A DNA stretch of 64,000 nt from Escherichia phage ELT1. The position numbers and the translations under genes are program-made. Positions 12,958-13,609 of this stretch are shown here, one piece after another. Location of the stretch: the sequence record MZ892903.1; one strand, given 5' to 3'. Within the stretch, counting starts at the first letter, position 1; each line of letters starts with the position of its first letter. The notes below the pieces were generated by a model that worked only from the letters and a program-made list of their open reading frames with translations, searched no databases and was not told the origin of the DNA.

Positions 12958-13029
12958 CTGGCGCACTTGGACTCGAACCAAGATAAAGGAGTTAACAGCT
13001 CCCCGTAATAACCTTTATACGATGCACCA
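12958..13029 (-). tRNA. tRNA-Asn (anticodon GUU), 3-bp D-stem, no encoded CCA
   Basis: Manual fold: acceptor TGGTGCA/TGCGCCA (one G-U), T-arm CTTGG-TTCGAGT-CCAAG, anticodon loop CTGTTAA. Confidence 0.55.
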
Positions 13030-13035
13030 TTTGTT

Positions 13036-13110
13036 TGGTGACCCTGGCTGGTTTCGATCCAGCTACCTATCAGTTATGAGCTGACAGCTCTCCCATTGAG
13101 CTACAGGGCC
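13036..13110 (-). tRNA. tRNA-Ile (anticodon CAU, T4 tRNA-Ile type; Met/Ile formally ambiguous), CCA encoded
   Basis: Acceptor GGCCCTG/CAGGGTC, anticodon loop CTCATAA, T-arm GCTGG-ATCGAAA-CCAGC. Confidence 0.7.
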
Positions 13111-13116
13111 TTGATA

Positions 13117-13189
13117 TGCTGATTGACGGAATCGAACCGCCGACGTCCTCATTACAAGTGAGGTGCTCTACCTACTGAGCTAAATCAGC
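13117..13189 (-). tRNA. tRNA-Thr (anticodon UGU)
   Basis: Cloverleaf GCTGATTTAGCTCAGTAGGTAGAGC...CTTGTAA...GGTTCGATTCC... Confidence 0.8.
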
Positions 13190-13196
13190 GAAATTA

Positions 13197-13283
13197 CGGA
13201 GGCGATAGGATTTGAACCTATGAGTCGCCGGAGCGACTGCCGGTTTTCAAGACCGGTGCATTAAACCACTCTGCCACGCCTCC
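13197..13283 (-). tRNA. tRNA-Ser (anticodon UGA), long variable arm
   Basis: Reverse complement matches T4 tRNA-Ser as recalled (GGAGGCGTGGCAGAGTGG...CTTGAAA...). Confidence 0.9.
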
Positions 13284-13285
13284 AG

Positions 13286-13359
13286 TCTCCGTGGCAGGAT
13301 TTGAACCTACGACATTCTGCTCCCAAAGCAGACGCTCTACCAAACTGAGCTACACGGAG
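13286..13359 (-). tRNA. tRNA-Pro (anticodon UGG)
   Basis: Acceptor CTCCGTG/CACGGAG, anticodon loop TTTGGGA, T-loop TTCAAAT. Confidence 0.85.
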
Positions 13360-13369
13360 TAAATTAAAT

Positions 13370-13443
13370 TGGAGCGGATAATGAGAATCGAACTCACATC
13401 ATCAGATTGGAAGTCTGAGGTAATACCATTATACGATATCCGC
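13370..13443 (-). tRNA. tRNA-Gly (anticodon UCC), CCA encoded
   Basis: Reverse complement matches T4 tRNA-Gly as recalled (GCGGATATCGTATAATGG...TTCCAAT...). Confidence 0.9.
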
Positions 13444-13448
13444 AAATT

Positions 13449-13535
13449 TGGTGCGAGAAGTGGGACTCGAACCCACAAGGAAATCATTCCGCAGCATTTT
13501 AAGTGCTGTGCCTTTACCAATTTGACCATTCTCGC
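13449..13535 (-). tRNA. tRNA-Leu (anticodon UAA), long variable arm, CCA encoded
   Basis: Acceptor GCGAGAA/TTCTCGC, anticodon loop CTTAAAA, T-arm GTGGG-TTCGAGT-CCCAC. Confidence 0.85.
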
Positions 13536-13536
13536 G

Positions 13537-13609
13537 CTGGGAATAAAGGACTCGAACCTTTGCATCTAGCAGTCAAAGTGCTATGCCTTACCAACTTGGC
13601 TAATTCCCA
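13537..13609 (-). tRNA. tRNA-Gln (anticodon UUG)
   Basis: Acceptor TGGGAAT/ATTCCCA, anticodon loop CTTTGAC; 1-nt spacer to tRNA-Leu (dimeric precursor arrangement). Confidence 0.85.

Follow-up and report, generated by a model that had tools for sequence, protein, structure and literature searches.

A nine-gene tRNA cluster in Escherichia phage ELT1 that probably acquired its tRNA-Asn(GUU) within an imported, homing-endonuclease-like cassette

The transfer RNA (tRNA) cluster of Escherichia phage ELT1 (sequence record MZ892903.1, of which a stretch of 64,000 nucleotides, hereafter the window, was analyzed) raises the question of how a T4-like array came to include a tRNA-Asn(GUU) gene, and whether tRNA-Arg(UCU), which T4 carries, was given up in exchange. 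The answer that we favor, with a probability of roughly 80%, is that ELT1 possesses a T4-like tRNA operon with nine tRNAs serving codon supply, in which a cassette resembling that of phages F2 and HY126 has replaced an Ile-segB-Arg block, homing being the likeliest route by which it arrived.

ARAGORN was run on the whole window, and the Rfam tRNA covariance model RF00005 (gathering score, 29 bits) served as a second, independent method. Both return the same nine tRNA genes at 53.6-73.5 bits in the Rfam model, all on the minus strand, as are all features of the window located below; according to ARAGORN, eight of the nine are contiguous (12958-13609). A sequence-only reading of this region had reported these eight genes, each of which is real (53.6-73.5 bits) and lies exactly where it was placed, and had assigned seven of them the order Gln-Leu-Gly-Pro-Ser-Thr-Ile, which matches the T4 record. 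Its statement that no tRNA-Arg(UCU) is present is refuted, as ARAGORN and Rfam both locate the overlooked gene, with an encoded CCA, at 12157-12232 (56.3 bits, E = 8e-11), 725 bp downstream of tRNA-Asn on the same strand and beyond an open reading frame (ORF) of 221 residues. The earlier reading ended at the edge of the contiguous array, and the T4 tRNA-Arg gene is likewise split from the other seven by a homing endonuclease gene. What survives of the proposed change in repertoire is the addition of one tRNA (Asn) relative to T4; the loss of tRNA-Arg(UCU) does not, the gene being present at 12157-12232.

The order Gln-Leu-Gly-Pro-Ser-Thr-Ile...Arg and the anticodons are those of T4, with Asn(GUU) inserted after Ile, and the description of the seven genes as T4-type holds to this extent. 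At the level of alleles, it also holds for tRNA-Gln(UUG) (13536-13609; 66.0 bits; 73/73 positions identical to T4), tRNA-Leu(UAA) (13449-13535; 59.3 bits; 87/87), tRNA-Gly(UCC) (13370-13443; 65.8 bits; 74/74), and tRNA-Ser(UGA), with its long variable arm (13196-13284; 62.6 bits; 87/87), all 100% identical, as well as for tRNA-Thr(UGU) (13117-13189; 73.5 bits; 72/73). It fails for tRNA-Pro(UGG) (13285-13359; 69.7 bits), which is a KMB40-type allele (73/74 to phage KMB40 versus 63/74 to T4), and for the tRNA with anticodon CAU that occupies the T4 tRNA-Ile position (13036-13110; 59.4 bits), which is an F2/HY126-type allele (72/72 to HY126 versus 54/72 to T4 tRNA-Ile). The tRNA-Arg allele is also of the F2/HY126 type (73/73 to HY126 versus 53/70 to T4 tRNA-Arg). 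A CCA terminus is encoded in the Leu, Gly, Ile(CAU), and Arg genes and in none of the Gln, Pro, Ser, Thr, and Asn genes. The encoded CCA of tRNA-Thr has been lost here, because TATCAA stands directly 3' of the gene (13111-13116) in the window and in phage SG1 where T4, KMB40, and a metagenomic contig described below (L041) have (A)CCAA; tRNA-Thr would consequently depend on the host CCA-adding enzyme.

The CAU tRNA, labeled Met by ARAGORN from its anticodon, is probably a lysidine-modified AUA reader of the tRNA-Ile2 type. Its acceptor stem, GGCCCUG/CAGGGUC, contains the pairs C4-G69 and C5-G68, which constitute the TilS determinant in E. coli tRNA-Ile2, unlike elongator tRNA-Met. The 5' GGCCC is common to this tRNA, T4 tRNA-Ile, and E. 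coli ileX; overall identity (0.71 to Ile2 versus 0.69 to Met) differs too little to be decisive.

The added gene, tRNA-Asn(GUU) at 12958-13029, scores 53.6 bits in Rfam (E = 4.8e-10), with the anticodon gtt at position 34 according to ARAGORN, and the cloverleaf with a GUU anticodon and a 3-bp D-stem that had been proposed for it is upheld by both methods. In the Rfam alignment, the D-stem consists of three Watson-Crick pairs and a U13·U22 mismatch, which is no defect, since the T4-identical tRNA-Gly of the same cluster has the identical D-stem. The tRNA features U1-A72, a variable loop of 4 nt, and no encoded CCA (the gene is followed by UAAUUU), and its end, ...GUGCGCCA-G, supplies the discriminator G73. 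The identity elements of E. coli tRNA-Asn are G73 and the anticodon, and U1-A72 is found in that tRNA as well. A thermodynamic minimum free energy (MFE) fold alone yields no cloverleaf, and MFE folding commonly misses the cloverleaf of unmodified tRNA sequences. A false positive is ruled out by the agreement of ARAGORN with Rfam and by an allele that is 100% conserved in at least 10 phage records from three genera.

This allele has counterparts of at least 95% identity in 16 phage records: those of the F2/HY126 group, Mosigvirus G2285, three phages named AV, and two Salmonella phages, SEA1 (Gelderlandvirus) and STP4-a. It is a rarer allele (F2/HY126/G2285/SEA1-type), with 57% identity to the common Tequatrovirus allele found in KMB40. 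Two other sources of the gene were considered. Derivation from the neighboring tRNA-Gly lacks support: the D-arm is identical, but the overall identity of 0.61 is no higher than that of other pairs. Capture from E. coli core genes is rejected, as blastn gave no match to them, the E. coli matches being only prophage-borne copies of tRNA-Asn (368 of 5426 genomes, 82-86% over 55-62 nt). The presence of an Asn tRNA is not in itself unusual among T-even phages: many Tequatrovirus records have 10-11 tRNAs, with Asn, His, and Tyr among them, and T2L carries tRNA-Asn (PMC2330249).

How this particular allele came to ELT1 is suggested by its surroundings. The segment Ile(CAU)-Asn-endonuclease-Arg (12131-13111) differs from HY126 by 5 mismatches over 981 bp (99.5% identity), and identity falls sharply on both sides, where the flanks diverge by at least 20%. 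The Arg, Asn, and Ile(CAU) genes are each 100% identical to those of HY126, versus 76% (T4 Arg), 57% (KMB40 Asn), and 75% (T4 Ile) for other alleles. The backbone is T4-like (Tequatrovirus), positions 1-12100 being approximately 96-97% identical to SG1, KMB23, and wV7, and the flanks of the cassette are 94-97% identical to KMB40, SG1, and T4 and themselves mix SG1-, KMB40-, and T4-like segments. The upstream junction falls at 13099-13110 within GGCCCTGTAGCT; all alleles have these 12 nt in common at the start of the Ile gene. Upstream of the junction, the window follows SG1 through tRNA-Thr and the TATCAA spacer and then turns to the HY126 type. The downstream junction, at 12131-12151 (approximately 20 nt), lies within AAGTGAGGAAAATATGAAAGG, the ribosome-binding site (RBS) and start of a 116-residue ORF. 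At the corresponding site of SG1, a gene annotated as a homing endonuclease and similar in size to segB stands between Ile and Arg. A block of approximately 960 bp has therefore replaced a segB-type block, and because the cassette is F2/HY126-like while the SG1 backbone has Ile-segB-Arg, the Asn tRNA arrived within it. It was probably a selfish nuclease gene that carried the Asn, Ile, and Arg tRNA genes over from another phage.

By sequence comparison, the resulting arrangement is rare but not unique, and two or more backbones contain it. Coverage of 11700-14300 reaches 80% in no phage record, none of 50,697 phage records has exactly this arrangement, and the Thr/Ile junction pattern gave 0 matches in IMG/VR and the JGI metagenomes; it is not unique because the Logan contig ERR4191872_117196 (L041) carries the same chimera. 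This contig encodes an identical ORF protein in the order Leu-Gly-Pro-Ser-Thr-Ile-Asn-ORF-Arg. It departs from the window at 3 positions in 12100-13200, has another spacer between Thr and Ile, and lacks Gln. The upstream end of the cluster is also variable, because L041 has a 202-residue ORF (contig positions 1735-2343) where the window has tRNA-Gln and a 174-residue ORF. Two candidates for an endonuclease-free empty site were set aside: in SEA1, where Asn stands beside Arg, the Arg is a different allele, and G2285 is only partly useful, as it lacks the 221-residue ORF, tRNA-Arg, and the 116-residue ORF together.

The center of the cassette is a free-standing, homing-endonuclease-like gene of 221 residues (12218-12883; ATG at 12883) between the Asn and Arg genes. 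Its product combines an N-terminal Cys/His motif, a NUMOD3-like motif, and a C-terminal nuclease of the Vsr/DUF559 fold. The Pfam match to DUF559 (21.8 bits) exceeds the cut-off of 20.6, and in PHROGs two families of unknown function are matched, together with, more weakly (E = 1.5e-5), a family annotated as homing endonuclease. A large protein collection contains 133 homologues, many of which JGI names 'very-short-patch-repair endonuclease'; the homologues share a conserved C-terminal region of approximately 130 residues, and their N-terminal DNA-binding modules vary (helix-turn-helix, NUMOD, zinc-finger-like). Among 43 homologues, D155, E166, N168, G169, H172, and Y173 are invariant and E127 nearly so. 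An AlphaFold2 model (mean predicted local distance difference test score 87, and above 90 over residues 130-221) has as its top Foldseek match the catalytic domain of I-Bth0305I (3r3p; E = 4.7e-4, probability 1.00, template modeling score normalized to the target 0.65), followed by 3hrl (DUF559), 1vsr (Vsr), and RAP-domain proteins. The reading frame is intact, and a ratio of nonsynonymous to synonymous substitution rates (dN/dS) of 0.09-0.22 against homologues from other genera shows that purifying selection acts on it.

The gene is preceded by a control region (12894-12920) that contains AATAAATA (12913-12920), which resembles a late promoter. Immediately downstream comes a hairpin of 8 bp (12894-12912), and the Shine-Dalgarno sequence AGGAG (12894-12898) lies in its 3' arm; such a design of late promoter and RBS hairpin has been described for I-TevI-III, segB, and mobE (PMC2988022). 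At its other end, the ORF overlaps tRNA-Arg at 12218-12232, where its final codons (...A S I V stop, GCC TCT ATA GTG TAA) coincide with nucleotides 1-15 of the tRNA gene. The same stop-codon overlap is present in the Jiaodavirus (LilPanda) homologue, and an identical C-terminus suggests it for the Gaprivervirus (PSD2001) homologue too. An RNase P cut at the 5' end of tRNA-Arg would strip the mRNA of this ORF of its stop codon.

The ORF family is rare, with members in 32 of 50,697 phage records, and resides in tRNA clusters, in the F2/HY126 group and in five further genera, which include Jiaodavirus, Gualtarvirus, and T4-like Acinetobacter phages; in Gaprivervirus PSD2001, the ORF stands at the homologous place in a record that has no tRNA annotation. 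Relatives lie inside tRNA arrays in 30 of 31 IMG/VR loci, and Arg(UCU), which accounts for 7.7% of all tRNAs in these loci, is the tRNA closest to the relative in 13 of 30 (binomial p ~1e-7, for loci that are not phylogenetically independent). A tie of SegB homologues to tRNA genes has been published (PMC13096335), and no published association of this Vsr-fold ORF family with tRNA-Arg(UCU) or tRNA clusters was found in the literature searched. The 221-residue ORF is missing from most phages with the same tRNAs; Mosigvirus G2285, for example, has the same Asn and Ile alleles without the ORF, tRNA-Arg, or the 116-residue ORF. As a separate observation, one IMG/VR locus (L015, UViG_3300021165_004379) yields an ARAGORN call of a transfer-messenger RNA at 2518-2848, with the tag AQQQKALIT; it belongs to a phage array that has 18 tRNAs, and it adjoins a relative of the endonuclease-like ORF.

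Like SegB, the GIY-YIG endonuclease of T4, the ORF combines a late-promoter-like sequence with an RBS hairpin, is associated with tRNA genes, and is expected to co-convert neighboring ones (PMC2330249, PMC13096335); it differs in having no sequence similarity to SegB, a Vsr/DUF559-like rather than a GIY-YIG fold, a reversed domain order with the nuclease C-terminal, and a stop codon that overlaps tRNA-Arg. That it might be a SegB variant was rejected, as BLASTP to T4 SegB gave a best E of 2.0 and no GIY-YIG match was found in Pfam. The 'EDxHD' Vsr-like homing endonucleases, among them I-Bth0305I and Hef, a free-standing gene of T-even phages, are an established family (PMC3239194). The ORF resembles them in its C-terminal Vsr-like nuclease and, putatively, in an N-terminal region for DNA binding with a NUMOD-like motif. 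I-Bth0305I has D196, N208, and H213, and the core of the 221-residue ORF has an invariant Asp, an Asn, and a His, with a different spacing of the residues. No similarity to I-Bth0305I is apparent at the sequence or profile level, and genes of the ELT1 type stand alone within tRNA clusters, not in a recA intron or in inteins.

Given these features, the history and working of the cluster may be envisaged as follows. In a mixed infection, the Vsr-fold homing endonuclease of the cassette would cut the tRNA region of the recipient, and repair from an F2/HY126-like donor would co-convert the flanking tRNA genes. By analogy with SegB, endonuclease-driven gene conversion is the most likely means by which the cassette was brought in: in T4 x T2L crosses, SegB causes approximately 1250 bp of T2L that carry tRNA-Met, Tyr, Asn, and Arg to be replaced (PMC2330249). 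The cluster would be transcribed, as in T4, into a polycistronic precursor that host RNase P and 3'-processing enzymes would cut; Gln, Pro, Ser, Thr, and Asn would receive their CCA ends from the host enzyme. The nine tRNAs most likely sustain the translation of phage genes, because their codons are much more frequent in the phage than in E. coli, and the Asn tRNA would add capacity for AAU and AAC. Counted over the 73 window ORFs, AAT occurs 44.4 times per 1000 codons, AAC 14.5, AGA 12.2, ATA 15.1, TTA 29.8, GGA 23.8, CCA 16.0, TCA 19.3, ACA 20.5, and CAA 23.2, whereas the E. coli values are approximately 2 for AGA, 4 for ATA, and 39 for AAT and AAC combined. AAU and AAC make up 5.9% of codons in a phage of 36% G+C.

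Several points weigh against this reading. On the side of codon supply, enrichment of cognate codons is also expected of any AT-rich genome and is no proof of selection for supplementation; the expression, processing, and aminoacylation of the tRNAs in ELT1 are predictions by analogy; and a promoter scan of the region returned 19 sites versus 16.5 expected from shuffles, which is no enrichment, so that no promoter of the tRNA operon is claimed. On the side of homing, the late-promoter-like match has one mismatch to TATAAATA, the NUMOD3 match (residues 87-103, 19.0 bits) is below its Pfam cut-off of 20.4, RAP is matched at 23.9 bits (E = 4.3e-5), also below its cut-off, and neither sequence comparison nor a profile search of the PDB retrieved a solved structure, leaving the link to I-Bth0305I at the level of fold only. 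The nuclease activity, target site, and homing of the ORF are predictions, and ordinary homologous recombination could yield the same mosaic without an endonuclease.

This last possibility, that recombination during co-infection assembled the cluster passively and that the 221-residue ORF is a passenger or a decayed endonuclease, is one of the two strongest alternatives, though we consider it unlikely. T-even genomes are highly mosaic, the flanks of the cassette also mix SG1-, KMB40-, and T4-like segments, and both junctions lie in short stretches common to both parents that any recombination pathway could use. The imported block is nevertheless centered on the ORF and measures only approximately 960 bp, with junctions of 12 and approximately 20 nt; the ORF has remained intact under purifying selection across genera (dN/dS 0.09-0.22); the occurrence of the same cassette in the second backbone of L041 suggests repeated or ongoing spread; and the analogous SegB process is experimentally established at the same locus (PMC2330249).

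An alternative of equally low standing concerns function rather than origin and holds that the Asn tRNA and the cluster serve mainly as a counter-defense, making good the host tRNAs that anticodon nucleases or other tRNA-targeting immune systems cleave or deplete. A phage tRNA-Tyr overcomes Septu and retron-Eco7, a selection under which T6 amplifies its segB-tRNA locus (PMC13096335). Moreover, the turnover of the locus is very fast, with at least five architectures, as would be expected of an arms-race locus, and the tRNAs beyond the T4 set in many T-even phages are Asn, Tyr, and His. All three belong to the queuosine group of tRNAs, which are targeted by nucleases of the colicin E5 type. The window, however, contains no pointer to a defense that targets tRNA-Asn, and the anticodon loop of its tRNA-Asn, CUGUUAA, is the same as that of E. 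coli tRNA-Asn, so that a loop-specific nuclease would probably cut the phage tRNA too. The frequent Asn codons suffice for an explanation by supply, and the two roles are not exclusive.

Very unlikely, in our assessment, is a third proposal, in which the ORF is an RNA-directed nuclease or RNA-binding protein of the RAP type that acts on the tRNA precursor, for instance at tRNA-Arg(UCU). It would account for the RAP match noted above, for the RAP-domain mitoribosomal proteins among the top fold matches, for the strong link of the ORF to tRNA-Arg(UCU) (nearest in 13 of 30 loci versus a background of 7.7%), and for a stop codon inside the tRNA-Arg gene. The fold search, however, ranks a DNA homing endonuclease of proven activity first, with Vsr and DUF559 next; RAP falls below its Pfam cut-off where DUF559 exceeds its own; the N-terminal regions of the homologues are swapped DNA-binding modules, typical of homing endonucleases; and most phages with the same tRNAs lack the gene, which is thus not needed for tRNA maturation. 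Finally, a swap in which tRNA-Asn(GUU) was gained and tRNA-Arg(UCU) lost, with AAC and AAU supplemented and AGA no longer so, accords with the lack of Arg among the eight contiguous tRNAs at 12958-13609 and is virtually untenable given the tRNA-Arg(TCT) gene on the same strand at 12157-12232 (56.3 bits in the Rfam tRNA model), its T4-like relative position after the endonuclease gene, and the use of AGA at 12.2 per 1000 codons.

The genes around the cluster retain the T4 layout with additions. In T4 (NC_000866 70908-72530), the order is Gln-Leu-Gly-Pro-Ser-Thr-Ile, segB, Arg, rnaD, rnaC; the ELT1 cluster lies at the corresponding place in the genome, with the e-region/rnaC-rnaD side on one flank and the trna.2-4/ipI side on the other, and has the same strand for all genes, the same order, and an endonuclease gene between Arg and the other tRNAs. 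Identity to the T4 flanks is 89-95% across the aligned window segments 10933-11788, 13065-13715, 14232-14703, and 14886-15500. Beyond tRNA-Arg lies the 116-residue ORF (11788-12138; PHROG 3355, function unknown), which is present in KMB40, SG1, and HY126 and absent from T4 and G2285, followed by homologues of two T4 stable RNAs: rnaD (species 2; 11677-11791; 96/116 aligned bases identical to T4), whose middle part of approximately 50 nt has been replaced, the window and KMB40 sharing one version and T4, HY126, and G2285 the other, and rnaC (species 1; 11532-11670; 138/139), which is nearly invariant, unlike the adjoining rnaD. Rfam contains no family matching rnaC or rnaD. A hairpin resembling an intrinsic terminator (11452-11481; 10 bp, 7 of them G-C, then a T run) is conserved in KMB40, HY126, and G2285 and is the probable end of the tRNA transcription unit. 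On the other side, between trna.2 and tRNA-Gln, the 174-residue ORF (13696-14220; PHROG 2290, function unknown) lies upstream of Gln; it is found in KMB40 and HY126 (the HY126 copy being approximately 81% identical) and is absent from T4 and SG1. The additions relative to T4 are therefore the Asn tRNA and the 116- and 174-residue ORFs; further differences are an endonuclease other than SegB, Ile(CAU) and Arg genes approximately 75% identical to those of T4, a Pro gene at 85%, and a tRNA-Thr without an encoded CCA.

Among other T-even phages, T2L and KMB40-type Tequatroviruses also carry tRNA-Asn(GUU) downstream of the T4-type subcluster (PMC2330249) and share with the window the Pro allele and the 116- and 174-residue ORFs; these phages differ in having 10-11 tRNAs, including Tyr and His, no endonuclease gene, and an Asn allele that is 57% identical. 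In the phages of the F2/HY126/Mizar/WFK type, the tRNA region consists only of Ile(CAU)-Asn-endonuclease-Arg, the 981-bp segment that is 99.5% identical to the window; they lack Gln, Leu, Gly, Pro, Ser, and Thr, and their flanks are approximately 80-90% identical to the window.

That T-even phages possess tRNA clusters of variable repertoire, including Asn, and that endonucleases drive replacements in this region is already known. What is added here is modest, namely a chimeric nine-tRNA cluster, an ORF whose stop codon overlaps tRNA-Arg, and a branch of Vsr-fold endonuclease-like genes that resides in tRNA clusters at the segB site and is linked to tRNA-Arg(UCU). We tentatively suggest, at somewhat less than even odds, that the 221-residue ORF represents an uncharacterized lineage of free-standing Vsr-fold homing endonucleases specialized in phage tRNA clusters with a preference for tRNA-Arg(UCU), an analogue of SegB built on a different nuclease. 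If so, the Vsr-fold lineage would compete with SegB for one locus, having displaced Ile-segB-Arg and carried the Asn tRNA into a T4-like backbone, and RNase P processing of tRNA-Arg would decapitate the endonuclease mRNA, tying the expression of a selfish gene to tRNA maturation.

For ELT1 itself, the full T4 tRNA set is kept with Asn added, and AGA decoding has not been given up; annotation pipelines would recover all nine tRNA genes. The cluster offers a natural example of how the tRNA repertoire of a T-even phage changes, with a selfish-nuclease block of approximately 960 bp replacing Ile-segB-Arg and delivering a new tRNA, and with one cassette junction within a tRNA gene and the other where the next ORF begins. 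Provided that the nuclease is active, the locus is contested by two unrelated homing endonucleases, which would bear on the evidence that such elements move and amplify anti-defense tRNA genes (PMC13096335).

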